Assembly: GCA_050011255.1 (NCBI GenBank)
Contig: JBEKJK010000012.1
Location: 4,007 to 68,006, forward strand
DNA from: Acidimicrobiales bacterium
Lineage (GTDB): Bacteria; Actinomycetota; Acidimicrobiia; Acidimicrobiales; UBA8190
Reading direction: 5' to 3'
Length of the DNA stretch: 64,000 bases
Within the stretch, counting starts at the first letter, position 1, and every line of letters begins with the position of its first letter. Positions 39,876 to 64,000 of the stretch are shown in pieces. A program made the position numbers and the translations under genes. The notes beneath the pieces were generated by a model. That model did no database searches. It was given only the letters and a program-made list of their open reading frames with translations, and was not told the origin of the DNA.

Positions 39876-39913
39876 ACGACCTCGAACTACCCGACGTCTT
39901 CGATGTCGAGCTC

Positions 39914-40561
39914 ATGAAACGCTTGGTCTTCTCGCGTCCGTGGTTCCATACAATCGACCTGGGTCACGGCGTCATCACTCCGGGCATCGACCAGTCCTGG
40001 GCGAAGCTTCAGCTACTAGGTTTTCCTAGGTCCTTCGCGGGCAAGGCGGTGCTCGACGTCGGAGCGTACGACGGCTTCTTCTCGTTCGAGGCCGAGCAGC
40101 GGAGGGCCGCGCGCGTGGTCGCAGCGGACGACTTCTGCTGGAGCCGTCCCGACGATCCGATGACCGACGGACACGGGTTCGACATCGCGCACTGGGCCCT
40201 GCAGAGCCACGTAGAGAAGAGGCGGATCGCGGTCGAGGACATCTCCCCCGATACGGTCGGCATGTTCGACTACGTCTTCTTCCTCGGGGTCCTCTATCAC
40301 GCGCCCGATCCCCTGGGTTACCTTCGCAGGGTCTACTCGGTCTGTTCCAAGACCCTCATCCTCGAGACCCACGTCGACGCGCTCGAGTACGACCGTCCGA
40401 TGATGGTGTTCTACCCAGGGGCGACGCTCGGTGACGACCCCTCGAACTTCTGGGGCCCGAACCGCCTCTGCGTAACTGAGATGTTGCGCGAGGTCGGGTT
40501 TCGCGGAGTCGAGCTCGTCTCCCATCAAGGTTCGAGAATGGCGTTCCACGCACACCGATGA
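39914..40561 (+). CDS. Class I SAM-dependent methyltransferase (DUF1698/CmoB-like)
   Basis: WFHTIDLGHGVITPG...FAGKAVLDVGAYDGFFSFEA...FDYVFFLGVLYHAPDP. Confidence 0.8.
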   Translation: MKRLVFSRPWFHTIDLGHGVITPGIDQSWAKLQLLGFPRSFAGKAVLDVGAYDGFFSFEAEQRRAARVVAADDFCWSRPDDPMTDGHGFDIAHWALQSHVEKRRIAVEDISPDTVGMFDYVFFLGVLYHAPDPLGYLRRVYSVCSKTLILETHVDALEYDRPMMVFYPGATLGDDPSNFWGPNRLCVTEMLREVGFRGVELVSHQGSRMAFHAHR

Positions 40562-40583
40562 GCATCGAGCACGGAGCGCGCTG

Positions 40584-41687: not shown

Positions 41688-42799
41688 CGCGCATCTGCTT
41701 CACGCACCCCGATGACGAGGTACTCGTCGGGCCCCGCCAGCAAGGCACCCAGTACTCCCAGGAGATTTTCGTCGGCCGTCGGCGCCCCTCCGGAACTCTC
41801 TTGCAGTCGTGTTCGCAGATCGGTCCCGCCACGGTGCACCTCGATCCGCCCGAACCCGTTTCTCGTCAGGAGGTACGACCACGTCTCGGCATGAAGGGGA
41901 TGGCCCGGTGCCAGGTCCGCCACGAGTGGGTCGGCGACGCGCCCCCAGGCCTCCGGTGTGAGAGAGACGACGAGAAGCACTCCCGTGTCAGCAATTCGCG
42001 CGGACAGCAGCGACATGAGCTGCGTGCATCCTCGCGCGCCGAGCACCTGCACCGAACCCTCGAGCACCGCTCCGCCCAGTGCACCGGTTGGCAACGATCG
42101 CAGATGGTCGGTCAGCTCCTCGCACCGAATGTGTGGCCCCGAGCTCGCCGCCAACCCTGACGAGGTCCCGTACGGGTCCAAGCCGTAGGCGTCGACACCA
42201 GCGGCGCGAAGAGCTCGAATCAACATGCCCTCTCCGCACTCCGAGTGCAGGACCGGAGCTGAAACACCCGACAGCGCCGAGAGTGCCAGCGACGACCACC
42301 ACCGCTCGCCGGGTGCCTGGTGCGCGACGATATCGCTAGGCATGGACGGTCGGAGAGCCGACACCTCCTCGTGCAGTCGGTCCAAGTCCTCTGCGACGAG
42401 ATTGAAGGCTCGCGCCACGGCCAGTGCGAACCGCGAGAACTGCGAGACGAAGAACCGCACGTACCATCCGACGGCTGCTCGGACCACGCGCTTTACGACC
42501 GAGCCTCCCGCTCGGCGCGACGCCACGGGCACTTGGAGGTCGATCGCCGCGCTGCGCTCGACGAATGACACGCCCCGTCTCAACGCGTGATCCCTGATTC
42601 CTTCGCGCGGGGCGAGCTCGCCGAACATCCGGTCGAGCTCGCTCTCGAAGTCGCCCGGCACAGCGCCAGAAGCACGCTGGCGTGCCACCTCCTCGTCGAT
42701 CTCGACTATGGCCCTGCGAAGCGCCCGTCGTCCTTCTTCGATGTTCACCCCCGAACGCTCATCGCCGACTGGGGCCGACGGTGGATCGTCGAAGCGCAC
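41684..42799 (-). CDS. SAM-dependent methyltransferase domain protein with N-terminal helical/coiled-coil extension
   Basis: N-terminal RRALRRAIVEIDEEVARQRASGAVPGDFESELDRMF. Methyltransferase-like VLHSECGEGMLIRALRAAGVDAYGLDP. 4-nt overlap with the downstream GT4 gene. Confidence 0.65.
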   Translation of the reverse strand: MRFDDPPSAPVGDERSGVNIEEGRRALRRAIVEIDEEVARQRASGAVPGDFESELDRMFGELAPREGIRDHALRRGVSFVERSAAIDLQVPVASRRAGGSVVKRVVRAAVGWYVRFFVSQFSRFALAVARAFNLVAEDLDRLHEEVSALRPSMPSDIVAHQAPGERWWSSLALSALSGVSAPVLHSECGEGMLIRALRAAGVDAYGLDPYGTSSGLAASSGPHIRCEELTDHLRSLPTGALGGAVLEGSVQVLGARGCTQLMSLLSARIADTGVLLVVSLTPEAWGRVADPLVADLAPGHPLHAETWSYLLTRNGFGRIEVHRGGTDLRTRLQESSGGAPTADENLLGVLGALLAGPDEYLVIGVREADAR

Positions 42800-43022
42800 G
42801 ATTCAATTGATATCCCCCACAGCGCGACGACGCATCTTCGCGACCCCGGCCACCTGACCCCGTCTCTGTCGAGGACGCCCTCGTACGGTCTGTCGAGAAC
42901 GCCTTCGTGGGGTGGCGCCCGAATCCACAAGACCTGCTTCTCCACGAGCAGCTACTGTTCCTCGTGGAGCGCTCCCCCGAGGGGACGTCGCACCGTCGGC
43001 GGTGCAGCAGAACCTCCTTCGT

Positions 43023-43051
43023 TTAACAAATTACGCACAAACAGTGAGAAT
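43023..43051 (+). promoter_or_regulatory. Sigma-70-like promoter candidate in an AT-richer gap
   Basis: TTAACA - 17 nt - GAGAAT within tttaacaaattacgcacaaacagtgagaatattag, about 55 nt upstream of the GTG at 43106. Confidence 0.3.
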
Positions 43052-43105
43052 ATTAGCCGCGCTATGTATCAATGACCGCGGCCCGTCGTCCGATACATAC
43101 ATTCT

Positions 43106-45139
43106 GTGAACCTCTTCAATTCCCCGACTTCGCCACCCGAACCACGACGACCAGCGGCCCTGCGAAGAGGCGCCGCCGGCTCTCGCCGGCTCGCCTCGGT
43201 GGTCGCGGGACTCGCCGGCACCCTGCTGCTGTCGTCACCGGTTGGTGCCCTGGCGACGTCCGGAGTCCGCACGGCGCCGGCGCTGACCCAAAACGCTCCG
43301 GCGTCCCCGATCAGGCCTGTGTTGGCCGCGTCGGTGACCGCACCACACGGGATCGTCCCGCCGGCCAATCCTGCGCAGACCATCGCGCCCTCACCGAACT
43401 TCCTAGCGAATTGCTCGGCAAGCTACTACGACGACTCTCAAGGGTGCCTGGACGCGACGCTTCAGGCGATAACAAACGCCCGGGCACAGGAGGGGGTGGC
43501 GGATATGGCGCTTCCCACCGACTGGGCGTCTCTAAGCCCCCAAGAACAGCTCTTCGTCGCTACGAACCTCGAGCGCACCGCGCGCGGTCTGACGCCGCTG
43601 TCGGCGATGGCGACGACGCTCGACCAGGCAGCACAACAGGGCGCCGGCGCTGACCAGGACCCCTCCCCTCCGGGCGGTTTCCCGTGGTCGTCTTGGGGCA
43701 GCAATTGGACCGCAGCCGTGGGCAACCCGCTCGAGGCGATCTACTACTGGATGTACGACGACGGTGAGGGCTCGTCGAACGCCGACTGCACCCCGGCGAA
43801 CACGAGCGGTTGCTGGCAGCATCGCGACAACATCCTCATGGCGCTTCGCTGCCAGCCGTGCGAGATAGGGACCGGCTACGCATCCGGGGCATGGCAAGGC
43901 CAGCCGAGCTGGACCGCGCTGCTCGTGGACACATCCGGAGCCACGTCACTCGACTACACCTGGACCCAGGTCCTTCCCTACCTGTCGAACAGCAACGGAA
44001 CGGGATCGTCGAACTCGGACCTCTTCGAGTTCGTCTCTGACCACGCCTTCGGGTGTGTGTGGAACTCCTACGACCAAACGGCCGCCACCGGTGGCCCTGA
44101 CATCGCCGCGACGCCGAGCGCGCTGGTCGATCCCCACGACGGCTTTCTCCACGTCTTCGTCAGCGCGGGTGACTCCCATCTCTTCGAGTACGTGAACGAC
44201 GACACCGGGGGGCGTGTCTGGAACTACTACGACCTCACGGCTGCGTTCGGCGTCTTGGACATCTCTGGAAGTCCGAGCGCGCTGGTCGATCCCCACGACG
44301 GCTTTCTCCATGTCTTCGAACGTGCCTCTGACGGACATCTCCTCGAGTACGTGAACGACGGAGTCGGGGGGCGTGCATGGAACCCCTACGACCTCACAGC
44401 CACATACGCCCCCTCGACGCCTCTCGGTGCCGCCCCTGACGCTATCTACGACTCCGCGCAGGGACTCATCCACGTCTATGCACAGTCCGCCGCCACCGGC
44501 CACCTGGTGGAGTACACGAACGACGGCGCGAACGGCCAGCCGTGGAACGCCTACGACCTGACCGTGAACGCGGGTTCAGGCAGTCCCGTCTCCGGCATCC
44601 CGAGCGCCGTCTACGACACGGGCCAGGACTTGATCCACACCTACGTCGAGGGCGCGAACGGCCATCTGGTCGAGTACCTCTCGGACCACGCCGACGGGCA
44701 TGTCTGGAACGCGTACGACCTGAGCGCGAACGCCGGAAGCGGTACGCCGATCGGCGGCTCACCCGGCTCGGTGTACGACGCAGGCCAGGATCTCATCCAC
44801 ACCTACGTCGAGGGCGCGAACGGAGAGCTCTTCGAATACGTCTCGGACCACGCCGACGGGCACGTCTGGAACTCGTACGACCTGAGCGCGAACGCAGGAG
44901 GCGGAGCCGGTGTCTCTGGCATCCCTGACCCGGTATACGACTCTGCCAGCGATCTCATCCACACCTACGTCGAGGGCGCGAACAGCCATCTGGTCGAGTA
45001 CCTCTCGGATCACGTCGACGGGCACGTCTGGAACTCGTACGACCTGAGCGAGAACGCCGGAGGCGGGGTCGACGTCGACGACGGGACCAGCGCGATCGTC
45101 ATCGGTGACGTGATCCACGTGTACGTGGGCGGCGGATAG
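43106..45139 (+). CDS. Secreted CAP/SCP (PR-1-like) domain protein fused to a 7-blade WNxYDL/IHVY propeller
   Basis: N-terminal RRGAAGSRRLASVVAGLAGTLLLSSPVGALA (possibly Tat-type). CAP-like NLERTARGLTPL...AIYYWMYDD...CWQHRDNIL. Seven repeats: WNSYDQ, WNYYDL, WNPYDL, WNAYDL, WNAYDL, WNSYDL, WNSYDL. Ends VIHVYVGGG. Confidence 0.8.
   Translation: MNLFNSPTSPPEPRRPAALRRGAAGSRRLASVVAGLAGTLLLSSPVGALATSGVRTAPALTQNAPASPIRPVLAASVTAPHGIVPPANPAQTIAPSPNFLANCSASYYDDSQGCLDATLQAITNARAQEGVADMALPTDWASLSPQEQLFVATNLERTARGLTPLSAMATTLDQAAQQGAGADQDPSPPGGFPWSSWGSNWTAAVGNPLEAIYYWMYDDGEGSSNADCTPANTSGCWQHRDNILMALRCQPCEIGTGYASGAWQGQPSWTALLVDTSGATSLDYTWTQVLPYLSNSNGTGSSNSDLFEFVSDHAFGCVWNSYDQTAATGGPDIAATPSALVDPHDGFLHVFVSAGDSHLFEYVNDDTGGRVWNYYDLTAAFGVLDISGSPSALVDPHDGFLHVFERASDGHLLEYVNDGVGGRAWNPYDLTATYAPSTPLGAAPDAIYDSAQGLIHVYAQSAATGHLVEYTNDGANGQPWNAYDLTVNAGSGSPVSGIPSAVYDTGQDLIHTYVEGANGHLVEYLSDHADGHVWNAYDLSANAGSGTPIGGSPGSVYDAGQDLIHTYVEGANGELFEYVSDHADGHVWNSYDLSANAGGGAGVSGIPDPVYDSASDLIHTYVEGANSHLVEYLSDHVDGHVWNSYDLSENAGGGVDVDDGTSAIVIGDVIHVYVGGG
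44627..45112 (+). repeat. Three tandem 162-bp coding repeats (propeller blades 5-7), near-identical over their first ~100 bp
   Basis: Units start at 44627, 44789 and 44951 with ga(c/t)(t/c)t(g/c)atccacacctacgtcgagggcgcgaac. They encode DLIHTYVEGAN(G/S)(H/E)L(V/F)EY(L/V)SDH(A/V)DGHVWN(A/S)YDLS. Confidence 0.85.
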
Positions 45140-45155
45140 CTGCTCGACACTACGC

Positions 45156-45914
45156 CTAGCGGGAGTCACCTCGTGCACGTCGCTCCACTCTCGTGCGAAG
45201 TGGGCTGAGGATCCACCGCAAGGGACGACCCAGCGCTGGAGCGTGGTCACCCAGCACGAGGCGCGCAGCTCGAGCGGCACCGTGCTCTGCGCGGTTCGCA
45301 ACCCGTACTACTAACGTGGCGACGTTGCGTGTGCGTTCACCGCGAACCCACTCCTTCGGACCGGCGACGGTGACCGAGGACGCGCCACGCGATTCGTCGC
45401 CGCTCGCGGGTGAGACGAATATCTCACCCCTGTCGCGCGCACTCACCGGCTTCACGACGACCAGGCTCGACGGGACCCCGAGCACCCGGATCACGACATC
45501 TCGCTCCTCCTCGTCGCTCACGACCACCTCTTGCGCGAGCGTCCACAGACCTCGCAACGCGGTCGCGTCGACACCGAGCTCGCCACAGATCAGAAAGGTG
45601 ACACTTCCGAAACGACGCAGAGCCGCCGCCAGCGACGTCACCTCGAGCCGCGCCCGTAGGCGGCTCGCACCGGGCCGGAAGGGAACTCCCGGCTCGAGGC
45701 AGAGCACCAGCGCATCGGCTCGCACAGACCTGCCGAGTCGATGAAGTGTCCACGCGCCACGAGCTCCTGTCATCGGGGCATGGAGGTGGGCAGCGCTCGG
45801 ACGCGGCGACACCACCACGACCTCGGCGGCGGCTGAAAGTGCCCGCCGGACTGCCGCGATCGTGAGAGACGCCGCCTGTCCGGGAACGGGCGGATAGCTG
45901 CCCGCCACGAGCAC
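45156..45914 (-). CDS. Hypothetical protein resembling only the N-terminal Rossmann half of a GT-B glycosyltransferase
   Basis: MLVAGSYPPVPGQAASLTIAAVRRAL...EVVVVSP resembles GT4 N-termini. There is no E-x7-E region. Starts 5 nt after the upstream GT4 stop. Confidence 0.55.
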   Translation of the reverse strand: MLVAGSYPPVPGQAASLTIAAVRRALSAAAEVVVVSPRPSAAHLHAPMTGARGAWTLHRLGRSVRADALVLCLEPGVPFRPGASRLRARLEVTSLAAALRRFGSVTFLICGELGVDATALRGLWTLAQEVVVSDEEERDVVIRVLGVPSSLVVVKPVSARDRGEIFVSPASGDESRGASSVTVAGPKEWVRGERTRNVATLVVRVANRAEHGAARAARLVLGDHAPALGRPLRWILSPLRTRVERRARGDSR

Positions 45915-45919
45915 GCGCT

Positions 45920-47119
45920 TCAGCGCACGCTCCGCACGCTCGCCTCCATGCGGTCGAGGACCGTCTCCCAGGAGTACTCGCTCATCACGTAGTCTCGCCC
46001 GCGTTCGGCCATGGCCCGGACCTCCGTCGAAGACCTAGAGACCTTACGCAGGAGGCCCACCAGCTCGTCGCGGTCGGAGAACAGCAGACCGCCACCCGAG
46101 CGCCGGCAGTGCCATGCGACGACGTCCCCGGCTGCCGTGGCCAGCACGGGCGTGCCCGCCAGCCATGCTTCCATCATGGTCCGCGAAAAGCTCTCCATGC
46201 GACTGGGCTGGACGTATGCGACGGCGGCCGCAAAGGCGTCATCGCGTTCGTCCGCGCCGACGAAGCCAAGGTCGATGACACGACCATCGAGCTCCTCGGG
46301 GACTTCCACCCGGCCCACTCCGATCGTCACCAGGTCCAGTTCGGTCCCGAGCTCCACAGCACGGGCGAAAGCCTCGACCAGCCAATCCCATCCTTTGCCC
46401 TTCTCGCGCCGCCCCGCGTAGAGGACGAAGGGCCGGGTGATCCCGTGACGTCTCCGAAAGCCCTCAGGGTCGTAAGAGCCGGGCACCCGCACCCCTGCTC
46501 CGGTCACCGTGTGACACGAGGCAACCGGACCCAGGCGGTGCGCGAGGGCGTGCTCCGGCTCGGACAGGAACCACACCGCCGCCGGGTCTGCGAGCACGTG
46601 CCGGAACACCTCCAGGTGGGCGTAGAGCTCGTCGTGGAGGCACGGCATCACCACTGCCCGCTCAGCTACGGCTCGTAGTCCCACCGCGGTCGTCCAGAAC
46701 AGGTAAGGGGAGAACACCACGGCGTCGAATTCCTCTCCGTGGCTCATCAGGTAGTGGAAAAGGTCCGGGGACCGGAACCAGAAACCGAGCCAGCTGATCT
46801 GCTCGTCGAGAGTGGGCACCACACCTCTGTCGATGAGGACGTGGGCTCGCCGAGCGACGCGCGAAGGTTCGCGCACCGTCGCGAAGCGCCGCACTACAAG
46901 GCCCTCTTCCTCGCTCGTCCCTTCGACCAGTTCGTTCTCCCATGTGAAGTGGTCGACGGCACAGGTCGTGAGCACTTCGACCTCCCACCCCCTCGAAGCC
47001 AGTCCTACCGCCGCCTCAGCCGAGACCGCCTCAGAGCCTCCAACCACACCAGGCCCGAAACGTGGGGGTACGAACGCGATCCGCCGGCCTGCGCCCGGGC
47101 GGCTCCCTGTCCGGCTCAC
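45920..47119 (-). CDS. Glycosyltransferase family 4 (GT-B)
   Basis: RIAFVPPRFGPGVVGGSEAVSAEAAVGLASRGWEVEVLT...FVLYAGRREKGKGWDWL...VQPSRMESFSRTMMEAWLAGTPVLATAAGDVV. The GTG at 47119 sits 3 nt after the wzt stop. The track start at 47221 would overlap wzt by 100 nt. Confidence 0.85.
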   Translation of the reverse strand: MSRTGSRPGAGRRIAFVPPRFGPGVVGGSEAVSAEAAVGLASRGWEVEVLTTCAVDHFTWENELVEGTSEEEGLVVRRFATVREPSRVARRAHVLIDRGVVPTLDEQISWLGFWFRSPDLFHYLMSHGEEFDAVVFSPYLFWTTAVGLRAVAERAVVMPCLHDELYAHLEVFRHVLADPAAVWFLSEPEHALAHRLGPVASCHTVTGAGVRVPGSYDPEGFRRRHGITRPFVLYAGRREKGKGWDWLVEAFARAVELGTELDLVTIGVGRVEVPEELDGRVIDLGFVGADERDDAFAAAVAYVQPSRMESFSRTMMEAWLAGTPVLATAAGDVVAWHCRRSGGGLLFSDRDELVGLLRKVSRSSTEVRAMAERGRDYVMSEYSWETVLDRMEASVRSVR

Positions 47120-47121
47120 GC

Positions 47122-48402
47122 TCAGCTGAGGCTGACGGTCCGGAAGTCGGCGTGCAGGTCGAGAGCCACGGTCCCGCGTGAGCGGCCGGGGTTCATCACG
47201 TCGAACGATGCCTGCTCCCATCGGTCGTAGACGATCCCCCGATCACTGCTTATTCCGACACTGACTGTGTAGGACCCCTCGAGCAGGGGAACGCTGTCGA
47301 ACGAGAAGTCCACGCGCCCACTTCCAACCGGAGCGTCGAAGGGCTTGCCGAGCATTGCGGTGTCCGACGCGAACACGAGCGCGCCGGCGCGGTCGAAGAC
47401 CTCGATGTTGAACACGACGCCTTTGGTGGGCTCGGTGGCCTCGTAGCTCATGTGGACCGAGAGGGGCTCGCCCGGCAGCAGGTGGGTGCGGCTCCCGGTA
47501 CCGGGGTGCTCGAGGTCGACCGAAGTGATCATGACCGGCCGCCGACCCTGTTGGTCCACGTCCATCTCGGCTTCCGACGGCACTGCCTCGGTCGCAGCAC
47601 CCACCTTGTCCAGGTAGTCGTGGTAGAGGTGGATCGCCTCAGCAGCCGTTCCCTCCCCGAGCACCTTGCCCTCGTTCAGGACCATTCCGCGATCGCAGAC
47701 CTGGCGCACGAGATCGGCCGAATGCGTGACGAACACGATCGTTCGACCGTCGTCCTGGAATTCCTTGATACGGGCAAGGCACTTTCGCGAGAAGTCCTCG
47801 TCGCCGACTGCAAGCACCTCGTCGATCACGAGGACGTCCGGATCGACGTTCACTGCCACTGCAAACCCGAGACGCACGTACATGCCGGACGAGTAGTACT
47901 TCACCTGGTTGTCGATGAACTGCTCCAACTCGGCAAAGGCCACGATCTCGTCGAAACGCCGGTCCACCTCTCGAGTGGAAAGCCCGAGCAACGAGGCGTT
48001 CAGGTAGATGTTCTCTCTGCCCGAGAGCTCTGGCTGGAACCCGGCTCCTAGCTCCAGGACAGCGGCGACCTGTCCTCGTACCACGACCTTGCCGTCGGTC
48101 GGCTGCAGGATCCCCGAGATGCACTTGAGCAACGTCGACTTGCCCGAGCCGTTGCGGCCGACGATACCCACGGTGTACCCCTCGTTGACCTCGAGATTGA
48201 CGTCGCGAAGCGCCCAGAAGTCCTCGTACGGATTTCGTCCGGCGTGCAACACGCGTTCTTTGAGCGAGTAGTACTTCTGGTGGTACAGCCTGAAGCGCTT
48301 CGAGACGTCTACCACGTCCACAGCGGTGTTCGCACCCAAACGTGTCTCAGAGCTCCTCGGCGAAATTGCCGGCGAGCCGGCCGAACACGACCATGGCTCC
48401 AA
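47122..48402 (-). CDS. wzt: Polysaccharide ABC exporter ATP-binding protein with C-terminal glycan-binding (Wzt_C-like) beta-sandwich
   Basis: GIVGRNGSGKSTLLK, YSSGMYVRLGFAVA, LVIDEVLAVGD, then a ~150-aa extra C-domain (ITSVDLEHPGTGSRTHLLPGEPLSVHMSYEA...FNIEVFD...GSYTVSVGISS). An alternative TTG start at 48339 lies just after the wzm stop. Confidence 0.88.
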   Translation of the reverse strand: MEPWSCSAGSPAISPRSSETRLGANTAVDVVDVSKRFRLYHQKYYSLKERVLHAGRNPYEDFWALRDVNLEVNEGYTVGIVGRNGSGKSTLLKCISGILQPTDGKVVVRGQVAAVLELGAGFQPELSGRENIYLNASLLGLSTREVDRRFDEIVAFAELEQFIDNQVKYYSSGMYVRLGFAVAVNVDPDVLVIDEVLAVGDEDFSRKCLARIKEFQDDGRTIVFVTHSADLVRQVCDRGMVLNEGKVLGEGTAAEAIHLYHDYLDKVGAATEAVPSEAEMDVDQQGRRPVMITSVDLEHPGTGSRTHLLPGEPLSVHMSYEATEPTKGVVFNIEVFDRAGALVFASDTAMLGKPFDAPVGSGRVDFSFDSVPLLEGSYTVSVGISSDRGIVYDRWEQASFDVMNPGRSRGTVALDLHADFRTVSLS

Positions 48403-49453
48403 GCAGCATCAGGAGCGAAACGCCCAAAACGATCAAGTCCGACGAGAGATACCACCCGGTCCCATATTGCGCCATCACGCCTTGTGGGAACGGCTGGTGA
48501 CTGATCGTGGAGATGGGGTGGACGATGTTGTAGAAGATCCGTTGAAAGGTCATCACGACGGGAGTGACCGGATTGGCAAAGTAGAGCCATAACACGTGCG
48601 TCCCTGGAATTCCGAAGAGCGAGTGCCTGGCGAGCTTGTCGTGGACGGTACCGGAGAAAGGGTAAATCCCGGGGACGGCCCAGAACCAAGCCATGAGAAC
48701 CACCTCGACCAGGTGCTGGGTGTCACGCAAGTAGACGTTCACCGCAGAAAGAAGCACCGACAAGGCGGCTGCAAAAGCAATCACGGCAGCCAGAGCAGGT
48801 ACCAGAAGCCACAGCGCGCCCCAGTCCGGCTGATGGCGGAACGCGACCATGAAGATCAGAAGGACGATGGACTGGAACAAGAAGAACATGAAGGCCGAAC
48901 CGACCGAGGCGAGCGGGAGGATCTCGCGAGGAAATGCAACCTTCTTCACGATGCCTGCATTGTTCACGATCGTCGACGTTGCAGCGAGCACCGAGGTCTG
49001 GAACAAGTTCCAGACCAGCATCGCCGCGAACATGTAAATGACGAATTTCGGGATGCCGTTCGGCAGGAAGAACGTGAACAAGACGTAGAAGACGGCGAGG
49101 GTCAAGGCCGGGTTCAGCATGGACCACAGGAACCCGAGAAACGAGTTCATGTACTTGACCTTTATCTCCTTGCGCACGAGGAAGATGAAGAGCTCGCGCG
49201 ATCGCCACAGGTCGACGATGCGTTGCTTCAAGCTCACCTTGGCGGCGACAACACGCGTCGGCTTGTGACCTCGCGCCGCGGCTTTCGCCGTGCGCCGCTT
49301 GAGGTCGCTCTCCGCGGCTGCTATGACCGTGGCCCCGGGCTGCTCGGGAACCTCGGGCGCCCCGCCGATGGCACTGTCGGGCCCGCGATCGGCCCGCACT
49401 TCGGTCACGATGGCGACCCGTTCATCCGACCCCTCACGCTTCTTACTGGGCAA
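48347..49453 (-). CDS. wzm: ABC-2 type polysaccharide exporter permease
   Basis: [45 protein letters not shown] plus six hydrophobic segments. The ~85-aa charged N-terminal extension may not be translated (start uncertain). Confidence 0.85.
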
Positions 49454-50078
49454 CCTCGGCGACAGAGTGCTCGATTACACGGTCGATGAAGCCGTACTCT
49501 TTGCCCTCTTGTGCGGTGAACCAACGGTCACGGTCGAAGTCCGCCTCGATACGCTCGACCGTCTGCCCGGTGTGCAGGGCGATGCGCTCTGCCATCATCC
49601 TCTTCAGGTAGACGATCTGCTCGGCCTGGATGGCGATGTCGGCGGCCTGACCCTGCATCTGCCCCGAGGGCTGGTGCATCAGGATTCGGCTGTGCGGGAG
49701 GGCGAAACGCTTGCCTGGAGTCCCGGCGCATAGCAGGAACTGGCCCATCGAGGCCGCCAGGCCGACACAGATCGTGCTCACGTCGCAACTCACGTACTGC
49801 ATCGTGTCGTAGATGGCGAGACCGTCGGTCACAGAACCACCCGGTGAGTTGATGTAGAGCGCTATGTCGCGCTCGCCATCCTCGGCAGCGAGCAACAGCA
49901 ACTGCGAGCAGACCAGGTTGGCGAGGGTCTCTTCGACGGCACTACCGAGGAAGATGATCCTCTCTTTCAGCAGACGCTGGAAAACGTCCGCCGCAGCCAG
50001 GTCAGACGTCATGGGAGCCCGCAGCGTGGCAGGGCTGGGCGTACGAGCAGGTGAATCGGGCGGGAAACGCTCGGGCAT
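49443..50078 (-). CDS. clpP: ATP-dependent Clp protease proteolytic subunit
   Basis: [25 protein letters not shown]...[18 protein letters not shown]...[14 protein letters not shown]...ILMHQPSG...[18 protein letters not shown] (Ser/His/Asp all present). Confidence 0.9.
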
Positions 50079-55701: not shown

Positions 55702-56328
55702 TCACGCTTCTCGAGAATCGATGTCCTCGAGCAGCGCGTCCACCAAGGCCCTGAAGGCTCGGCCACGCTGAGAGATCGCGTGCTTCTCCTGCGGCTGCAT
55801 CTCGGCGAAGGTCCGCTCCTGGCCTGCCGGCACGAACACCGGGTCGTATCCGAAGCCGCCGACGCCCTGCCGCTCGAAGACGATCGTTCCCTCCACGAGC
55901 CCGTCAGCGAACACCTCGTGTCCGTCGGGGAAGCAGGCGACGGTGACCGTGCGAAACCGCGCGCGGCGCTCGTGCGCGGTGGTGGCGTCGGCTGCCTCCA
56001 GCTCCGCGAGCAGCTTGGTCACGTTCTCGTCGTAGCGACCCGCAATTCCCGCGTAGCGCGACGAGCGCACTCCCGGTTCTCCGCCCAGCGCGTCGACCTC
56101 CAGCCCGGTGTCGTCGGCCACAGCCGGCAGGCCGGTCAGCTCGACCAATGCCCTGGCCTTCAACCGTGCATTCTCCTCGAGCGTGTCGCCGGTCTCATCT
56201 ACTTCCGCTGTCCCTTCGGGACACGCAACGAGCTCCACACTCCCACCGGCAGCGGCCCTCACTATGTCGATGATCTCCGCCGCTTTGTCGCGGTTCGCGG
56301 TGGCCAGAACGAGTCGCAGACGGGGCAT
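55702..56328 (-). CDS. rdgB: Non-canonical purine NTP pyrophosphatase (RdgB/HAM1)
   Basis: RLVLATANRDKAAEI...ETGDTLEENARLKA...ADDTGLEVDALGGEPGVRSSRYAG...GGFGYDPVF...EKHAISQRGRA. The ATG at 56328 avoids overlap with rph. Confidence 0.9.
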   Translation of the reverse strand: MPRLRLVLATANRDKAAEIIDIVRAAAGGSVELVACPEGTAEVDETGDTLEENARLKARALVELTGLPAVADDTGLEVDALGGEPGVRSSRYAGIAGRYDENVTKLLAELEAADATTAHERRARFRTVTVACFPDGHEVFADGLVEGTIVFERQGVGGFGYDPVFVPAGQERTFAEMQPQEKHAISQRGRAFRALVDALLEDIDSREA

Positions 56329-56363: not shown

Positions 56364-57140
56364 TCACCTCGGACGTGGGGGCTCGGCGATCACGGTCCGC
56401 TGCGCGTCGAGCAGGGAGGAAATGCCCTTCTCGGCCAGCCCGAGCATCTCGTCGAGCTCGTTGTGACTGAAGGCCACCTTCTCCGCGGTGCCCTGCACCT
56501 CGATGAAACGCCCGCTGCCGGTCATCACCACGTTCATGTCCACCTCCGCCCTCGAGTCTTCGGAGTAGTCGAGGTCCAACATGCAGACTGCGTCGACGAC
56601 CCCCACAGACACTGCGGCACACGCGTCCCCGAGCGGATGAATGGATATGAGACCCTTCTGCATCTGACGGGTGAAGCAGTCGTGCAACGCCACATAGGCA
56701 CCACAGATGGAGGCTGTGCGCGTCCCCCCGTCGGCCTGCAGCACGTCACAATCCACGGTCACCTGCAGCTCGCCCATCGACACCAGATCGGTCACCGCGC
56801 GAAGCGACCTCCCGATCAGGCGTTGGATCTCCTGGGTCCGCCCCGACTGGCGACCCTTGGCCGCCTCGCGTCCGATGCGCTCGGCTGAGGAGCCCGGGAG
56901 CAACGAGTACTCGGCGGTGACCCAACCCCTCCCGCTGCCCCGCATCCAGGGAGGGACGCGCTCCTCTACCGAAGCGGTGCAGAGCACCATCGTCCTGCCC
57001 ATGCCGACCAGGACCGAACCGGCGGCGAGCTCGGTGAAGTCGCGCGTGAACATGACCTTGCGCAGCTCGTCGAGCATCCTGCCGTCGGGTCGCAGAACCC
57101 TGGGATCCGACGCGCCTGCACTGCTCACCGGTTCGCTCAC
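56364..57140 (-). CDS. rph: Ribonuclease PH
   Basis: [19 protein letters not shown]...[14 protein letters not shown]...[16 protein letters not shown]...[16 protein letters not shown]. Confidence 0.92.
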
Positions 57141-57248: not shown

Positions 57249-58004
57249 TCAAAGCGAGTAACCACGGCCGACGGCGGCCTGCTCCACCGGACCACCAAAG
57301 GTCTCAACCGCTTCCGCGAGGACGTCCTCGGCGGCGATCGTGGGCCACCGGTGCGTGATCACGAGCCTACGAACCGACGCCGCTCTTGCCGATCTCCCCG
57401 CCTCACGTCCCGTCATGTGCCCTGCCGTCCCCTGGTAGTCACTCGTGTAGGTGGCCTCGCACAGAGCCAGGTCGAGCCCCGGGCCGAGAGCCTCGAGCGA
57501 CCACCCCGGCCCGGAATCGGCAGAGTACCCCAGGGCGCCCTCGTCTCCCTCGATGCGGACCGCGTGGGTGACCGGTGGATGGTCGGTGCGCGAGAACCTG
57601 ATCCTCAGGTCACCGACTCGAGCCCCCTCACCGTCGCCCACCTCACGCCAATCGAGGATCCCGTCTACCTCAGAGGCGAGCTTCGCTTCAATGCCCGGGG
57701 AGGCGAAGACCGGGATGGGATCGCGTCGAAACCCGAGCACCCACCGTCCCGCCGTCAGCAGGCTCTCGATGTCGCTGAAGTGGTCGGCGTGCTCATGGGT
57801 GAGGATGACCGCCGAAAGGCGCAGCGGGTCCAAGAACCGCTGCAGGTTCGCGAACGTCCCGGGGCCCGCGTCGACCCACAGCGCGGTGCCCGAGCCCCAC
57901 GAGCGCACGAGATACCCGCTTGCGGCGCCACTCGAGCCCTGCCCGCCCGCAAGTCCCGAGGGGCCCGGGTAGCTGCCGTCACAACCGAGCACAGTCAAGG
58001 TCAT
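57249..58004 (-). CDS. MBL-fold metallo-hydrolase (Rv1339-like position)
   Basis: MTLTVLGCDGSYPGP...LWVDAGPG...AVILTHEHADHFSD (HxHxDH). Start/stop overlap (TGATG) with the upstream Mur ligase. The track ORF's N-terminal 179 aa are overlap artefact. Confidence 0.85.
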   Translation of the reverse strand: MTLTVLGCDGSYPGPSGLAGGQGSSGAASGYLVRSWGSGTALWVDAGPGTFANLQRFLDPLRLSAVILTHEHADHFSDIESLLTAGRWVLGFRRDPIPVFASPGIEAKLASEVDGILDWREVGDGEGARVGDLRIRFSRTDHPPVTHAVRIEGDEGALGYSADSGPGWSLEALGPGLDLALCEATYTSDYQGTAGHMTGREAGRSARAASVRRLVITHRWPTIAAEDVLAEAVETFGGPVEQAAVGRGYSL

Positions 58005-59398
58005 CACGGACGTGAAGCTCCGAGCTCTGACACCGCCTCGTTGAAAGCTGCCCCGCGCTGGACGTAGGTGCCCTCCACGCGAGGTGTCGGAGCTGCGGGC
58101 GAGAACAGCAACACCCCCTCCTCCCCGAGCAGCGTGCTCGCCTGGAGAACCGCTTCGTGCACGGTCGGCGCCCGAACGCAGGTGACCTCGGGCCCCGACG
58201 AGGCGAGCTCGACGCGCAAGCGCTCGCCGAGGTCCGGAAGGCATACGACGACAGGTCGCGGTCGCATGCCGTTGATCGCTCCCAACAGTGGGCCTAGATC
58301 GACCCCGCGGTCCTGGCCCCCGGCGATCAGGCAGACTCGTCGTCGCGCGAAAGTGCGAAGCGCCGCGATGGTGCCTGCAGGGTTGCTCGCCAGCGCGTCG
58401 TTCACGAACTCGATCCCCCCGCGGGTTCCCACCGTCTGGAGCCGGTGCGGCAGGACCGGCATTTTCTCGAACGCCTGCCCGAGCGACTCGGGGGAGGGAA
58501 GGTGGCCTTCCTCGAGCAAGCACGCGGTGAGTGCCCCGCACAGGTTCACCTGGTTGTGCTCGCCGCGAAGCCTCAGCGCCGAGGCGTGGAGGTCCAGCAG
58601 GTGCTCGCCGTCGAGCATCACCTCCCCGGAGCGGACCGTGACGCGCCCCTCACCGCCGTAAAGGACTCGTCGCGCGTATCGGGCTGTCCCGGCGATCGCG
58701 TCGGGGCTCGACGAGCTCACCGCAAGAGCGACGTCCGTGCGATGGTCGAAGAGGTTCAGCTTGTCGCGCACGTACCGGTCGTAGCTCCCGTGCCAGTCGA
58801 GATGATCGGGCGCCAGAAGGGTCAGAACACCCACCATCGGTGAGACCTTCACGTCGGCACCCTGGAAGCTCGAGATCTCCACGACGTAGACGTCGCTCGG
58901 TTCCTCGCCGTACAGCTCGGTGAGCGGCGTGCCCATGTTCCCCCCGAGCCGTACCCGAAGGCCGCATGCCTCCAGCAAGATCGCGGTCAGCCACGCCGTC
59001 GTGGTCTTCCCCTTCGTCCCCGTCACGCCGATCACGCGACTGTCCGAGAAGTCCTCCAACCACATAGCGGTCGCCGACGTCAACGTAGACCCCGCTGCGA
59101 TGACCTTCTGCAGCTCGTCGCGGTAGACCGACACTCCCGGAGAGCGCACCACGCAGTCGAAGTGCTCTTCGCCCAGAACCGCCGGGTGGCGCAGAGGAAC
59201 GTCCACACCGTCCACCGGGACAGACCCTGCGTTCCGAGTGGCCCCGGGCTCCCCCACCCGGTCGTCGACGAAGACGATGTCCGCCCCGCGCTCGAGCGCA
59301 GCCCTTGCCACGTCGAGCCCCTCGACCCCGGTCCCCCAGACGGCAACGTGCGACGTGCGCAGCCGTTCCATGCCGGTGGCGGACGAAGGTCTGCTCAT
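58004..59398 (-). CDS. murD: MurD-family Mur ligase outside any dcw cluster; candidate MurD2 (UDP-MurNAc-L-Ala:L-Glu ligase)
   Basis: VAVWGTGVEGLDVARAALERGADIVFVDD, VIGVTGTKGKTTTAWL, VVEISSFQ, DHLDWHGS. Paired with a MurL-like gene 51 nt upstream. Confidence 0.7.
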   Translation of the reverse strand: MSRPSSATGMERLRTSHVAVWGTGVEGLDVARAALERGADIVFVDDRVGEPGATRNAGSVPVDGVDVPLRHPAVLGEEHFDCVVRSPGVSVYRDELQKVIAAGSTLTSATAMWLEDFSDSRVIGVTGTKGKTTTAWLTAILLEACGLRVRLGGNMGTPLTELYGEEPSDVYVVEISSFQGADVKVSPMVGVLTLLAPDHLDWHGSYDRYVRDKLNLFDHRTDVALAVSSSSPDAIAGTARYARRVLYGGEGRVTVRSGEVMLDGEHLLDLHASALRLRGEHNQVNLCGALTACLLEEGHLPSPESLGQAFEKMPVLPHRLQTVGTRGGIEFVNDALASNPAGTIAALRTFARRRVCLIAGGQDRGVDLGPLLGAINGMRPRPVVVCLPDLGERLRVELASSGPEVTCVRAPTVHEAVLQASTLLGEEGVLLFSPAAPTPRVEGTYVQRGAAFNEAVSELGASRP

Positions 59399-59449
59399 AC
59401 CACCACCATCTTCGTCGACCGGTTCACCCTGTCGCGCTCTCTCGTGTGC

Positions 59450-60910
59450 TCAAACGGGAGCCGCCTCGACCAAGGCGCGCCGGACCTCGGCGAAGACCTC
59501 GCCGGTCGAGACGCGAACGTGCCGACCGGGTGCCGGCAGCTCCTCGATTGCATGTCTCATCTGCTCTATCACGGCGGCGCCGGACCACGCCGGGTCTCCC
59601 AGCAGCTGGCGAAATGCCTGAGCGACCTCCTCCACGGTGCCTACGCACTCAAAAGGCTTACGTCGCGCGTCGAGCATGTCGAAGAAGCCCTCCGCCTGGG
59701 CTTCGTCGTCGAGCAGGTCCGCCCCGAAGATCGCCGTGACGTCTCGTCGCGCGAGCGCGGTGGCGAGAGCGAGGAACACGAACCGACACTTCGGACAAGC
59801 GAGACACCAGCCGTCCACTGGACCACAGACCCGAGAGGCCCGGTTGCAGCTCCTGAAAGCGGACAGGTAGGGGGTGAGCGTCGCAAACGCAGCAGTGATC
59901 TCGAGCTCGCTGAACATCCTGAGCGGCGACAGGAACCGGATCGACTCGTGGACCGACTCACGAAGGACCTGTTGCAACTGGGCCTCGAACTCCACCGACT
60001 TGCTCCACTGGTGATTGACGTCCACGCGGCTCATATCCGTCCCGTCCGACTCTTCGCCGAGCACCCTCGTGGGAGCGTCGGCCGAGCTCTCGAGCGCGAT
60101 CGCAGTCGTGTCATAGCCCCAGAGGTACCCACCGGCAACGGCCAAGAGGGAGACGATCGCCGTCACCGGCACGTGCCCGTTGAGAGCGCCTCGTTCGTTC
60201 AGGTCGAACAGAAGCGGGTCGAGGGTCCGCCGGATCCTCGCCAAGTCGAGCCCGGAGATGGACGCGATCCGTTCCACGGCCGGGTTCGGGTTCACCGAGA
60301 CCAGCAGTGGACGTAGGTCCTGCGGGTCTTTCGGGTCCTCCGGCTCGTCTTTCGGCCCCTTCGCCCCGTGCGGCTTTGCCCCATGCGGCTTTGGCCCGTG
60401 CGCCTTTGCCCCGCCCCGCTTGTTCAGGGCCTCGACCACGACGATCGAGTCCTTCCCACCGCCGATGGGAACGGCCACGCCCGGCTCGGGGGCCTCGGCG
60501 ACGGAGACCTCCGCGTCGCCCGACGCGGAGATCTCGAGGTCGATCGGCACGGCGAGTTCGTTTCGGTAGGCGAATTCGCGCATGCCCTTGTCATAGATAT
60601 CCCGACAGAGACGCATCTCGGCTCGGGTCAGCGCGCCGGTCTCCACCACTATGCGTCGCGGGGCAGCGGTCTTGTAGTAGCTGACACCAGCCACCAGATG
60701 AAGAAGGCGCGCCGCTTTTTCGAAACCGCGCTCCTTCCCCCGAGACAGAGTACGAACGGCGCCGCCGAAGTCGACGCGCTCCTCGAAGTGGTAGTCGTCG
60801 TCGAGGGCGTAACGAAGAGAGACGGTCGCGTTCGCTGGGTCGGCCTCGAAGCTGGTCATCCGGAACCGATCTACCTTGTCCGGACGAAAGGGCACTGTGT
60901 TTCGACTCAT
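59450..60910 (-). CDS. murL: PP-loop-like protein; candidate MurL (UDP-MurNAc-L-Ala-L-Glu epimerase)
   Basis: VAVPIGGGKDSIVVVEAL (SGGxDS-like PP-loop) and the Cys cluster CLACPKCRF. Upstream of and co-oriented with the MurD-like ligase. The ATG at 60910 lies just after the cysM stop. Family assignment is from gene context and memory, not a search. Confidence 0.55.
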   Translation of the reverse strand: MSRNTVPFRPDKVDRFRMTSFEADPANATVSLRYALDDDYHFEERVDFGGAVRTLSRGKERGFEKAARLLHLVAGVSYYKTAAPRRIVVETGALTRAEMRLCRDIYDKGMREFAYRNELAVPIDLEISASGDAEVSVAEAPEPGVAVPIGGGKDSIVVVEALNKRGGAKAHGPKPHGAKPHGAKGPKDEPEDPKDPQDLRPLLVSVNPNPAVERIASISGLDLARIRRTLDPLLFDLNERGALNGHVPVTAIVSLLAVAGGYLWGYDTTAIALESSADAPTRVLGEESDGTDMSRVDVNHQWSKSVEFEAQLQQVLRESVHESIRFLSPLRMFSELEITAAFATLTPYLSAFRSCNRASRVCGPVDGWCLACPKCRFVFLALATALARRDVTAIFGADLLDDEAQAEGFFDMLDARRKPFECVGTVEEVAQAFRQLLGDPAWSGAAVIEQMRHAIEELPAPGRHVRVSTGEVFAEVRRALVEAAPV

Positions 60911-60915
60911 CGAGC

Positions 60916-61863
60916 TCAGAAGTAGATCGTTCGTCGGGCGCGCTCGGTCACCACGTCGATGTCGTCGGTCCACGCCCCGGTGGACAGATACTTCCACCCC
61001 CCGTCGGCAGAGACCACGACGATGACGCCAGACGAGATCGCCCGGGCGCACTTGGCAGCTCCCGCCATGGCCGCCCCCGACGAGAGGCCAGCGAAGATGC
61101 CTGCCTCGGCCAGCCGGCGCGTCCACTCCACAGACGCGCGCGGCCCCACGATCGTCTTACGGTCGAGCAACTCGGCACCTCCGAGGTCGCTGAAGATCGG
61201 GGGAACGTACCCCTCGTCCAGACTGCGAAGTCCGTCGACCATCTCCCCCGCCGGGGGTTCCACCGCCCAGACCTCGACACGAGGATTGCGCTCCTTCAGG
61301 AAGCGCCCGACTCCGAGCAGAGTTCCCGAGGTCCCGAGCCCGGCGACGAGATGGGTCACCTCGGGGCAGTCCCGCCATATCTCAGGCCCCGTGCCTTCGT
61401 AGTGGGCCTTCGGATTGGCGTGGTTCGCGTACTGGTTGAGGAGCACCCACTCCGGGTGCTCGTTATGGAGCCGCTCGGCCATTCGCACAGCGCCGTTCGA
61501 GCCCTCGCCACCCGGGGACTCGATGATCTCGGCCCCCCACAGCTCCAGCGCCTGGCGACGCTCGACCGACACGTTCGAAGGAAGCACGACCCTCAAGTGG
61601 TACCCCTTCAACCTCGAGACGAGAGCCAGCCCTATCCCGGTGTTCCCTGAGGTGGGCTCGAGAAGCGCCGCCCCCGCGGTGAGCACACCCTCCTTCTCGG
61701 CCTCCTCCACCATCGACAGGGCGATCCGGTCCTTGACCGAACCCCCGGGGTTGTGCCCCTCGAGTTTCACCAGGATGCGAACCTCCCGGTTCGGGCTGAG
61801 CTGGCTCACATCCACCAGCGGGGTGTTGCCGATCAGCTCCAGCACACCCCCTACTAGAGCCAT
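60916..61863 (-). CDS. cysM: Cysteine synthase (CysM-type, CysO-dependent context)
   Basis: LIGNTPLV...KLEGHNPGGSVKDRIALSMV...PTSGNTGIGLA...GLGTSGTLLG. Confidence 0.9.
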   Translation of the reverse strand: MALVGGVLELIGNTPLVDVSQLSPNREVRILVKLEGHNPGGSVKDRIALSMVEEAEKEGVLTAGAALLEPTSGNTGIGLALVSRLKGYHLRVVLPSNVSVERRQALELWGAEIIESPGGEGSNGAVRMAERLHNEHPEWVLLNQYANHANPKAHYEGTGPEIWRDCPEVTHLVAGLGTSGTLLGVGRFLKERNPRVEVWAVEPPAGEMVDGLRSLDEGYVPPIFSDLGGAELLDRKTIVGPRASVEWTRRLAEAGIFAGLSSGAAMAGAAKCARAISSGVIVVVSADGGWKYLSTGAWTDDIDVVTERARRTIYF

Positions 61864-61909
61864 GGCCCAAGTCCTCGTCGCCCGAGCGGCCAGCGCGCCG
61901 TCAGCGAGA

Positions 61910-62185
61910 TCAACCCCCCGCCACCGCGGGAAGGATCGACACCGTGTCGCCCTCGGCGACCTTGGTGTCCAGCTTGTCCAGGTAACGGACGTCGTCGTCG
62001 TTCACGTAGACGTTCACAAAACGGTGCAAGGTCCCGTCGTCCGTGAGCAGCTGCCCGGCCATGGCGGGATAGCTGTGCGTCAAGTCGGCCAGCACCTCCC
62101 CGATCGTGGCACCCCTCGCCGAGACGATCGTCTGCCCGCCGGCGTGGGGACGAAGGACCGTTGGCAGGCGCACTTCGACTGGCAC
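61910..62185 (-). CDS. cysO: MoaD/ThiS-family sulfur carrier protein
   Basis: VPVEVRLPTVLRPHAGGQ...HRFVNVYVNDDDVRYL...GDTVSILPAVAGG (C-terminal GG). GTG at 62185 preceded by GGAGGAGG. Confidence 0.85.
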   Translation of the reverse strand: MPVEVRLPTVLRPHAGGQTIVSARGATIGEVLADLTHSYPAMAGQLLTDDGTLHRFVNVYVNDDDVRYLDKLDTKVAEGDTVSILPAVAGG

Positions 62186-62281
62186 GACCTCCTCCTTCCA
62201 TCCCTCTGCCACCGGCGCCTCGAGCAAGTGGGTCCTCACGGCGAACGGGACCGACGAATGTCGACGATTTCAGTCGGTATT

Positions 62282-62707
62282 CTACCGGGGCTCGTCGATC
62301 TCCACGACGGGCTCCTCGCTCACCTGCCCGTCCACGATGCGGTACGAGCGCAGCACGGGGCGGGGGTCGCGTAGCGAGACGAGCACGTAGTGCCACCGGG
62401 GGTCGCTCAGAGGTGTGCTCGCCCGCTCGACGTCGGTATTCGACGGGTAGGCGTCGGTGTGGGTGTGCGAATGGAAAACCCCGATGATCTCGAGCCCTAG
62501 CTTCTCGGCCTCCAGCTCGGCGTGAAGGTGCTCGCGAGGATCGACCGTGTAGAGCTTGGACGAGGCCGCCATGTTACGGGTGGGGAAGCAGCGCGAAACC
62601 TGACCTGCGGCGAAGTCCCCGGCAATGAGCCCGCACGCTTCGTCGGGTAGGCCACTCAGGCAGTGACCGAGGATCTGTGTACGGACCTGGGTGGGCAGTC
62701 TCAGCAC
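62282..62707 (-). CDS. mec: JAMM/MPN+ metalloprotease (Mec-type)
   Basis: EACGLIAG...GVFHSHTHTDAYPSNTD (HxHx7Sx2D JAMM motif). Confidence 0.88.
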   Translation of the reverse strand: MLRLPTQVRTQILGHCLSGLPDEACGLIAGDFAAGQVSRCFPTRNMAASSKLYTVDPREHLHAELEAEKLGLEIIGVFHSHTHTDAYPSNTDVERASTPLSDPRWHYVLVSLRDPRPVLRSYRIVDGQVSEEPVVEIDEPR

Positions 62708-63383: not shown

Positions 63384-63734
63384 GGGGGTGATCGGTTTCG
63401 ACTCCGGTAGTCGATACGGGAGAAGCGAGCCGTGGTCCCCGGAGCCACGTTAAAGAGCCGGGACATAAAACAAACGCCGAGCCTCAGCTCGCGCTGGCTG
63501 CTTAATCAGTAGCCCGTCCGTCCGGCCCTAGTCCTAGGGGTCGGGTACGGGCGTCATCTACTGGGACTTACCCGAAGGGCGTCGTCGCCCAGCCCCCGGG
63601 GACAACGAAGGGTGACTGGGGCCCAGGACAGCCGCCGGCGGTGGTTCAGGACCCGAGACGAAACTGCCGGCTGCGCTCGGAGAAGGCCCGTTGAAACGCT
63701 GGAGGACGCGGGTTCGATTCCCGCCACCTCCACC
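63384..63734 (+). ncRNA. ssrA: tmRNA (ssrA)
   Basis: 5' GGGGGTGATCGGTTTCGAC. 3' GGACGCGGGTTCGATTCCCGCCACCTCCACCA, with a G3:U wobble in the acceptor stem. Tag frame ...gcc gag cct cag ctc gcg ctg gct gct taa encodes ...AEPQLALAA*. The exact resume codon was not determined. Confidence 0.9.
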
Positions 63735-64000
63735 AGAAGGTCCATGTTCGAACCCCGACTCCTCTTGAGGTAGCCGGGGTTCTTCATTTCCTGAGCCAAA
63801 CGGGAGGGCAGATCCTTGTCGAGCAGGCTCTTAAAGGGCTGAGCCAGCTCCACCCGAGTTACCTCGCCGTCAACGTCGATCTTCACCCACTCAAAGACCG
63901 CTTGATTGAAGTGGCGACGCACCGTGGGCTTCGCCTTCCGGTAAGCCTCGCCGAATCGTGTCGCCAGGCCAAGGGCTGCCTTAAGGTTGGCCTCCATCGT
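63554..64000 (-). CDS. C-terminal part of a large-serine-recombinase-like protein (5' end beyond the right window edge); the reading frame continues into ssrA
   Basis: ...LKAALGLATRFGEAYRKAKPTVRRHFNQAVFEWVKIDVDGEVTRVELAQPFKSLLDKDL resembles the conserved C-terminal tail of large serine recombinases (from memory). The frame is open to the window edge (ACG ATG GAG) and has no stop until 63554, 181 nt inside the tmRNA gene. Confidence 0.45.
   Translation of the reverse strand, partial: TMEANLKAALGLATRFGEAYRKAKPTVRRHFNQAVFEWVKIDVDGEVTRVELAQPFKSLLDKDLPSRLAQEMKNPGYLKRSRGSNMDLLVEVAGIEPASSSVSTGLLRAQPAVSSRVLNHRRRLSWAPVTLRCPRGLGDDALRVSPSR

Follow-up and report, generated by a model that had tools for sequence, protein, structure and literature searches.

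A MurL homologue and a linked MurD-family ligase at the murI position of an Acidimicrobiales operon

Here, we describe two adjacent genes, encoding a MurL homologue and a MurD-family ligase (58004-60910), in a 64,000-nucleotide stretch of DNA from an Acidimicrobiales bacterium (assembly GCA_050011255.1, contig JBEKJK010000012.1), which is referred to throughout as the window. They lie between cysM and a group comprising a gene for a metallo-beta-lactamase (MBL)-fold hydrolase, rph and rdgB, a position that is held in many other Acidimicrobiia by murI, the gene for glutamate racemase. The arrangement recalls that of MurD2 (XOO_1320) and MurL (XOO_1319) of Xanthomonas oryzae, where the genes for the MurD-family ligase and the MurL-family protein are likewise adjacent (PMC8788868, PMC5808125).

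The operon between mec and rdgB

The genes of interest form a series on the minus strand at 55.7-62.7 kb of the window, in the order mec, cysO, cysM, a gene for a 486-residue protein, the MurD-family ligase gene, the MBL hydrolase gene, rph and rdgB. The features, in order of transcription, are as follows.

62282-62707, minus strand: mec, a JAMM (Prok-JAB) metalloprotease (Prok-JAB PF14464, E 4.6e-20)
61910-62185 or 62239, minus strand: cysO, a ThiS/MoaD-like sulfur carrier (ThiS, E 3e-17), with the probable start at 62185 giving 91 residues, as in the Joint Genome Institute (JGI) gene call
60916-61863, minus strand: cysM, a cysteine synthase of the CysO-dependent type (PALP, E 4e-68; TIGR01136 cysKM, 325 bits)
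59450-60910, minus strand: murL homologue, 486 residues (NCBIfam NF041275, 337 bits; GGGKDS motif); the JGI start at 60895 gives 481 residues
60446-60463, minus strand: codons of the MurL PP-loop G150-G-G-K-D-S155, from residue positions mapped to the window
58004-59398, minus strand: MurD-family ligase (Mur_ligase_M, Mur_ligase_C and MurD-like_N; TIGR01087 murD, 256 bits against a cutoff of 212)
57249-58004, minus strand: MBL-fold hydrolase resembling cyclic-nucleotide phosphodiesterases (Lactamase_B_2, E 1.7e-22; NF041851, the NCBIfam model of cyclic nucleotide-degrading phosphodiesterase, 148 bits, below its cutoff of 400)
56364-57140, minus strand: rph, RNase PH (TIGR01966, 351.5 bits)
55702-56325 or 56367, minus strand: rdgB, non-canonical purine nucleoside triphosphate pyrophosphatase (Ham1p_like, E 3e-59; 221 residues in the JGI gene call)

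The domain scores of the eight operon genes are far beyond chance. The genes are tightly packed, with 5 nt between the cysM stop codon and the ATG of the murL homologue, 51 nt between the murL homologue and the ligase gene on the same strand, and an overlap of the ligase TGA with the ATG of the MBL hydrolase gene in the sequence TGATG. A sequence-only reading of this DNA had proposed the same minus-strand order and the TGATG junction; all eight genes were found at or very near the positions that it gave, and the junction can be read directly. This gene order is also present in independent assemblies (L001, which is GCA_963737015.1, and loci L006, L088-L091, L094 and L175/L176), with MurL proteins 44-100% identical to that of the window. 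A scan of the operon for promoters and terminators gave no signal above chance. A 558-residue version of the murL open reading frame (ORF), starting from a GTG at 61126, was rejected, as it overlaps cysM and the homologues begin at or after 60910.

The MurL homologue and its linked ligase

The 486-residue protein matches NF041275 (MurL_Xanthmoales, UDP-N-acetyl-alpha-D-muramoyl-L-alanyl-L-glutamate epimerase) at E 1.2e-100, and the identical public protein P0001 carries precomputed Pfam annotations of MurL_N (PF26299) and MurL_epimerase_C (PF26298). The local Pfam library returned no match for the protein, and the MurL Pfam families were seen only in precomputed annotations. In an alignment of 44 MurL sequences the PP-loop G150-G-G-K-D-S155 is invariant, as are N244GHVP, N299HQ.SK, C355, C369, C372 and C375. 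Judged by its sequence, the protein is a MurL homologue over its full length.

An AlphaFold2 model of the protein is confident (predicted local distance difference test score, pLDDT, 91.2; predicted template-modelling score, pTM, 0.90). A sequence search against solved structures returned no match at E <= 1, and a fold search with the model gave one significant solved-structure match, QueC 2pg3 (probability 1.00, E 4e-3). The likeness is at the level of the fold only, with 16% identity and TM-scores of 0.55 (QueC-normalised) and 0.28 (MurL-normalised), and MurL, unlike QueC, has additional N- and C-terminal domains and catalyzes a different reaction. QueC (7-cyano-7-deazaguanine synthase) is a PP-loop ATPase with a zinc-binding cysteine cluster that uses ATP to activate a carboxylate, and its PP-loop and cysteine cluster are resembled by the GGGKDS motif and the C355/C369/C372/C375 cluster of MurL. 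The PP-loop and the QueC-like fold are consistent with the mechanism proposed in the literature, in which the terminal alpha-carboxylate of the substrate is adenylated by MurL and AMP is released (PMC8788868). Homology, motif and fold are what support a putative role for the window protein as an ATP-dependent L-to-D epimerase.

One part of the protein is peculiar. A 15-bp tandem repeat of 3.7 copies lies within murL at 60359-60413 and encodes HGAKP-type repeats, which sit in an insertion of about 35 residues after the PP-loop helix. The insertion is absent from the 447-residue homologue of L001 and from the MurL of X. oryzae, and the repeat loop is modelled as disordered (pLDDT < 50, residues 169-179).

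The adjacent gene codes for a three-domain Mur ligase in which K131, E174, H199, K213 and D334 align with Escherichia coli MurD K115, E157, H183, K198 and D317. At further positions of E. coli MurD, D182 corresponds to D198 of the window ligase, R186 and Y187 to W202 and H203, K319 to L336, K348 to R364, A414 to P437, and L416 to P439. The ligase carries an HLDWH motif, and the canonical-MurD motif NDSK(A/S)TN, which contains Lys319, is replaced by NDALASN. Lys is present at position 319 (E. coli numbering, used below unless stated otherwise) in the MurD proteins of both E. coli and Streptococcus agalactiae, and its lack distinguishes the window ligase from canonical MurD. The location of the gene is different too, within the cysM...rph operon and not in the mraY-ftsW interval typical of canonical murD.

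The residues that govern choice of the glutamate isomer have been studied in X. oryzae, where MurD2 and E. coli MurD have different residues at four sites: E197/D182, R358/K348, P433/A414 and F435/L416 (PMC8788868). Substitution E197D altered the stereospecificity of MurD2 and E197D/R358K switched it fully to D-Glu, whereas P433A and F435L left the specificity unchanged; conversely, acceptance of L-Glu was gained by E. coli MurD through K319T and by Streptococcus mutans MurD through K330T (PMC8788868). The window ligase shares two of the four X. oryzae residues (R358 and P433, conserved as Arg364 and Pro437) and differs at the others, with Asp198 for Glu197 and Pro439 for Phe435.

These positions were compared in 66 MurL-linked ligases, comprising four Acidimicrobiia neighbours, seven ligase domains of MurL fusions, and 55 MurL-adjacent ligases from a metagenome scan. 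Lys does not occur at position 319 in this set (Leu 31, Ile 31, Asn 2, Phe 1), His occupies position 187 in all 66, Arg is found at position 348 in 64 of 65, and Pro at position 414 in 52 of 65, while position 182 is divided (Glu 36, Asp 29, Ala 1). Arg at 348 is not exclusive to MurL-linked ligases, as the canonical S. agalactiae MurD also has it. The window ligase carries the general hallmarks of MurL-linked ligases, and its closest homologues (120/120 clusters) share Asp198, Leu336, Arg364, Pro437 and Pro439, a D/L/R/P/P pattern that defines an Acidimicrobiales ligase subtype. Specificity for L-Glu is not readable from these residues, and we infer it. One high-GC locus (L143), considered as a Micromonospora-like source of MurD2, was rejected, its relatives being metagenome-assembled genomes (MAGs) of Aeromicrobium, Streptosporangiaceae and Acidimicrobiales.

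Could the ligase instead be an ordinary D-Glu-adding MurD, with the MurL homologue having a different or accessory job and D-Glu coming from a racemase encoded elsewhere? The score to TIGR01087 is above the cutoff, which accounts for the public label of 'D-glutamate ligase' given to its homologues, and Asp198 matches E. coli Asp182 and not X. oryzae Glu197. We nevertheless consider this improbable. All 120 closest homologues have Leu in place of Lys319 and Lys is absent there from the MurL-linked ligases; moreover, the ligase nearly always lies beside MurL and is sometimes fused to it. Characterised MurL is also inactive on the D-Glu product, so that a MurL beside a D-Glu ligase would have no substrate (PMC8788868). 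The identifications made from the letters alone, namely a PP-loop protein that is MurL-like and a MurD-like ligase, were borne out by profile, fold and residue pattern.

The murI slot in relatives and the mobility of the pair

The state of the slot in relatives was examined by a scan with the window RNase PH, taking the best 80 loci among the matches listed (600 rows) and 10 kb on either side of the anchor. The rph genes are 63-82% identical to that of the window and, by their flanking genes, all 80 loci are apparently from Acidimicrobiia MAGs, with a few record titles carrying other taxon names. The conserved block reads smpB, followed by mec-cysO-cysM, the slot, and MBL-rph-rdgB. With E. coli MurI as the probe, the slot was classified as follows.

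murI directly upstream of MBL-rph: 31 of 80 loci
murI directly upstream of rph, with no MBL gene detected: 12 of 80 loci
murI beside cysM: 1 of 80 loci
empty, with cysM or mec abutting the MBL gene or rph: 18 of 80 loci
not classifiable: 15 of 80 loci
contig too short: 3 of 80 loci

In total, 43 of the 80 loci have murI directly upstream of MBL-rph or rph, and Pfam Asp_Glu_race confirms the slot ORFs of two of them, L007 and L028. The first of these has, among the 80 loci, the rph most similar to that of the window (82%), and in L036 murI is flush with both cysM and the MBL gene, just as the murL-ligase pair is in the window. Neither murL nor a linked ligase was found within 10 kb in any of the 80 loci (positive controls were detected). 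Within the window, nothing resembling murI was found (the best tblastn match has E = 3), nor was a second Mur ligase or any dcw (division and cell wall) gene, from a survey of the 40 main ORFs and tblastn. The window matches contig Ga0187848_10000101 (77.5 kb) of JGI metagenome 3300017935, its relatives being MAGs of Acidimicrobiales and Acidimicrobiaceae; that contig likewise has no murI, dcw genes or second Mur ligase.

The sequence-only reading had argued for positional replacement of murI from Mycobacterium tuberculosis, in which the block Rv1334-Rv1341 runs mec, cysO, cysM, rhomboid, murI, Rv1339, rphA, rdgB. That claim now has firmer ground than this analogy: positional replacement is supported because the organism's own relatives have murI in the same slot.

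The pair itself was followed through 80 metagenome MurL loci (29-100% identity to the window MurL; G+C contents of 39-75% among those tabulated). A ligase gene is immediately adjacent on the same strand in 69 of them, 67 in the order murL-then-ligase and two in the reverse order, and a contig end lies near murL in nine of the 11 loci lacking an adjacent ligase. Seven representative clusters (P0147, P0205, P0209, P0222, P0235, P0237 and P0248) are single MurL-ligase fusions of 832-914 residues, with MurL at the N-terminus and the MurD-like ligase at the C-terminus; those that are named come from Alphaproteobacteria and Microbacteriaceae MAGs and bear the label 'D-glutamate ligase'. Most of the fusions are MAG-derived singletons, and assembly or gene-calling artefacts may be among them. 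A further protein (P0214) has an amino-acid kinase/ACT protein fused to MurL. Overall, the MurL family comprises 2363 clusters (50% identity) at E <= 1e-3 and 818 at E <= 1e-30.

Several lineages carry the pair within the dcw cluster. Locus L160 (1396-7546) reads mraY-murL-ligase-ftsW-murG-murC, with the ligase in the slot of the housekeeping murD, L128 reads mraY-murL-ligase, and L162-L164 and L166-L167 read murL-ligase-ftsW-murG. These dcw-embedded lineages are low in G+C (0.45-0.54 where measured). A ligase that is the only MurD had been proposed to count against a bypass of MurI; this has the matter backwards, given the linked ligase in the murD slot of several lineages. The bypass predicts the linked ligase as the only MurD, so that its being the sole murD would not refute the bypass.

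Two other contexts are found in Acidimicrobiia: ligase-murL between ald (on the minus strand) and dxs (L004/L005, L168-L174), and murL-ligase between a sulfatase gene and an AhpC-like gene (L177). The murL-ligase pair is mobile as a unit, with at least three contexts within Acidimicrobiia. The ald/dxs type is a candidate source of D-Glu for the genomes with an empty rph-linked slot (including loci L008, L011, L013, L018, L023, L032, L042, L046, L050, L051, L061, L062 and L066); when contig names and lengths of the rph-anchored loci were compared with those of the loci found through MurL, no contig was common to both sets.

In an unrelated lineage, loci L106-L108 (e.g. L107, 9968-14055; G+C 0.62), murL-ligase immediately precedes rph-rdgB without an intervening MBL gene. 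The MurL is 34% identical to that of the window, the ligase pattern is E/L/R/P/F, and UPF0182 and rpsB-tsf are among the flanking genes; it looks as if an rph-linked slot has been occupied a second time, independently. We tentatively suggest that the module of MurL and ligase may insert repeatedly at the positions of the two genes that it renders dispensable (murI in at least two distant lineages, the window clade and L106-L108, and murD in others); such a pattern would point to an exchange of cassettes that is directed by operon context or conserved flanking genes. Separately, and with similar reserve, the Acidimicrobiales ligase subtype may select the glutamate isomer differently from X. oryzae MurD2, possibly accepting both.

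The slot bears on whether the pair might act on some other glutamate-containing glycopolymer or metabolite and not on a peptidoglycan precursor. Nothing specific favours this beyond the presence of a polysaccharide gene cluster in the window at about 36-49 kb. The pair is not beside that cluster, the ligase has full MurD architecture with MurD proteins as its best matches, and the slots that the pair fills are those of murI in the window and of murD elsewhere; we regard such a role as very improbable.

A predicted route to D-glutamate and its setting

The reading that we favor, with a probability of roughly 0.78, is that the pair at 58004-60910 constitutes the known MurD2/MurL route to the D-Glu of the peptidoglycan stem peptide, as an in-situ replacement of murI. 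The MurD-family ligase would add L-Glu to UDP-N-acetylmuramoyl-L-alanine (UDP-MurNAc-L-Ala), and MurL, via its PP-loop ATP site, would adenylate the terminal alpha-carboxylate and invert the residue irreversibly to D-Glu with release of AMP, if it follows the chemistry of the characterised homologue. Such a route would require no free D-glutamate, and hence no glutamate racemase. One gene would have been replaced in place, between cysM and MBL-rph-rdgB, by an unrelated pair with the same job. The pathway is dated to 2017 by reviews of 2018 and 2021, and the MurD2/MurL pairs of X. oryzae, Micromonospora and Salinispora have been shown in vitro to work by this route (PMC8788868).

With the X. 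oryzae pair, the window pair shares the MurL homology (E 1e-100) and the ligase residues described above; it differs in belonging to another phylum and another genomic context, the cysM...rph operon. A precedent within Actinomycetota is provided by Micromonospora sp. ATCC 39149 and Salinispora tropica, whose MurD2/MurL pairs were confirmed in vitro (PMC8788868), although these are of the class Actinomycetes and not Acidimicrobiia. Compared with the canonical combination of MurI and a D-Glu-specific MurD, the flanking block is the same, as the Acidimicrobiia relatives with murI illustrate, but the window slot contains no racemase gene, and stereo-inversion would follow ligation at a cost of one ATP.

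Four points weigh against this reading. The MurL score of 337 bits is below the 700-bit equivalog cutoff of NF041275, although that model was built for Xanthomonadales, so that its cutoff gauges closeness to that order and not membership of the MurL family. The window ligase has Asp198 at the position of X. oryzae Glu197, one of two experimentally shown stereo-determinants, and this is a real caveat because E197D altered the stereospecificity of the X. oryzae enzyme; Asp there is a common natural variant of MurL-linked ligases, with 29 of 66 having it. Position 416 is Pro439 in the window ligase, and Phe or Tyr in most MurL-linked ligases. Finally, the sequence covered amounts to about 77 kb of the organism, and murI, a D-amino-acid aminotransferase gene or a second murD may lie elsewhere.

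The last point leads to the alternative that the routes are redundant, the pair being a second or conditional route that coexists with a murI or D-amino-acid aminotransferase gene, possibly together with a canonical murD, and not a replacement. The sequence covered is only 64-77 kb of the genome, and the mobility of the pair between loci means that its gain need not coincide with loss of murI. We think redundancy unlikely, since the pair has taken the ancestral murI position in this operon, the published MurD2/MurL organisms are without genes for making D-Glu (PMC8788868), and the linked ligase sits in the dcw murD slot in other lineages.

The remainder of the window has several features of its own. 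The segment 1-19044, with a G+C of about 0.61 against about 0.66 elsewhere, is likely an integrated mobile element beside tRNA-Gly(GCC) (18969-19044), with the following genes.

1-3750: TrwC relaxase/helicase, cut by the window start
4323-5276: DprA-like gene
6841-7377: single-stranded DNA-binding protein (SSB)
8512-10311: DUF6119
10910-11812: ArdC/M78
11916-13085: NERD nuclease
17688-18902: tyrosine integrase

An ordinary-looking cell-surface polysaccharide cluster follows at 36112-49474, with several glycosyltransferases of families GT4 and GT2, a methyltransferase, and a Wzm/Wzt-type ATP-binding cassette (ABC) exporter. At the other end of the window is a transfer-messenger RNA (tmRNA) gene (63384-63735) and then a second mobile element (window 63384-64000 and L002 1-7342, past the window end), with genes for a serine recombinase, a helix-turn-helix (HTH)/M78 pair, a DNA methyltransferase, a relaxase and a type IV secretion system coupling protein. 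At its 3' end, the serine-recombinase ORF (63554-63997, minus strand) shares sequence with the annotated 3' portion of the tmRNA gene.

On this reading, the arrangement would be a tidy gene-for-gene replacement by an already known system and not a new kind of system. The lineage of the window is not among the taxa listed with the pathway in the 2021 review (PMC8788868), and our search of the literature found neither MurL nor MurD2 described in Acidimicrobiia. Three findings extend what that review describes: relatives with murI in the same slot, the pair in the murD slot elsewhere, and the Asp/Pro subtype of Acidimicrobiales ligases; no report of them was found in the searchable literature.

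In NCBI records, the ligases are called 'D-glutamate ligase' and the MurL homologues appear as 'hypothetical' or 'endonuclease domain-containing', while JGI names many MurL relatives as the epimerase; under the NCBI labels, metabolic reconstructions from Acidimicrobiia MAGs would contain a spurious gap at murI and give the ligase the wrong substrate. The 2021 review described the pathway as confined to relatively few genera and proposed it as a narrow-spectrum antibiotic target (PMC8788868), a premise of narrowness that is weakened by the 818 MurL clusters at E <= 1e-30 and the wide range of G+C among the loci. For the Acidimicrobiales, the operon would represent a clean case in which two genes unrelated to an essential one have taken over its position and its function, and close relatives still display the ancestral state.

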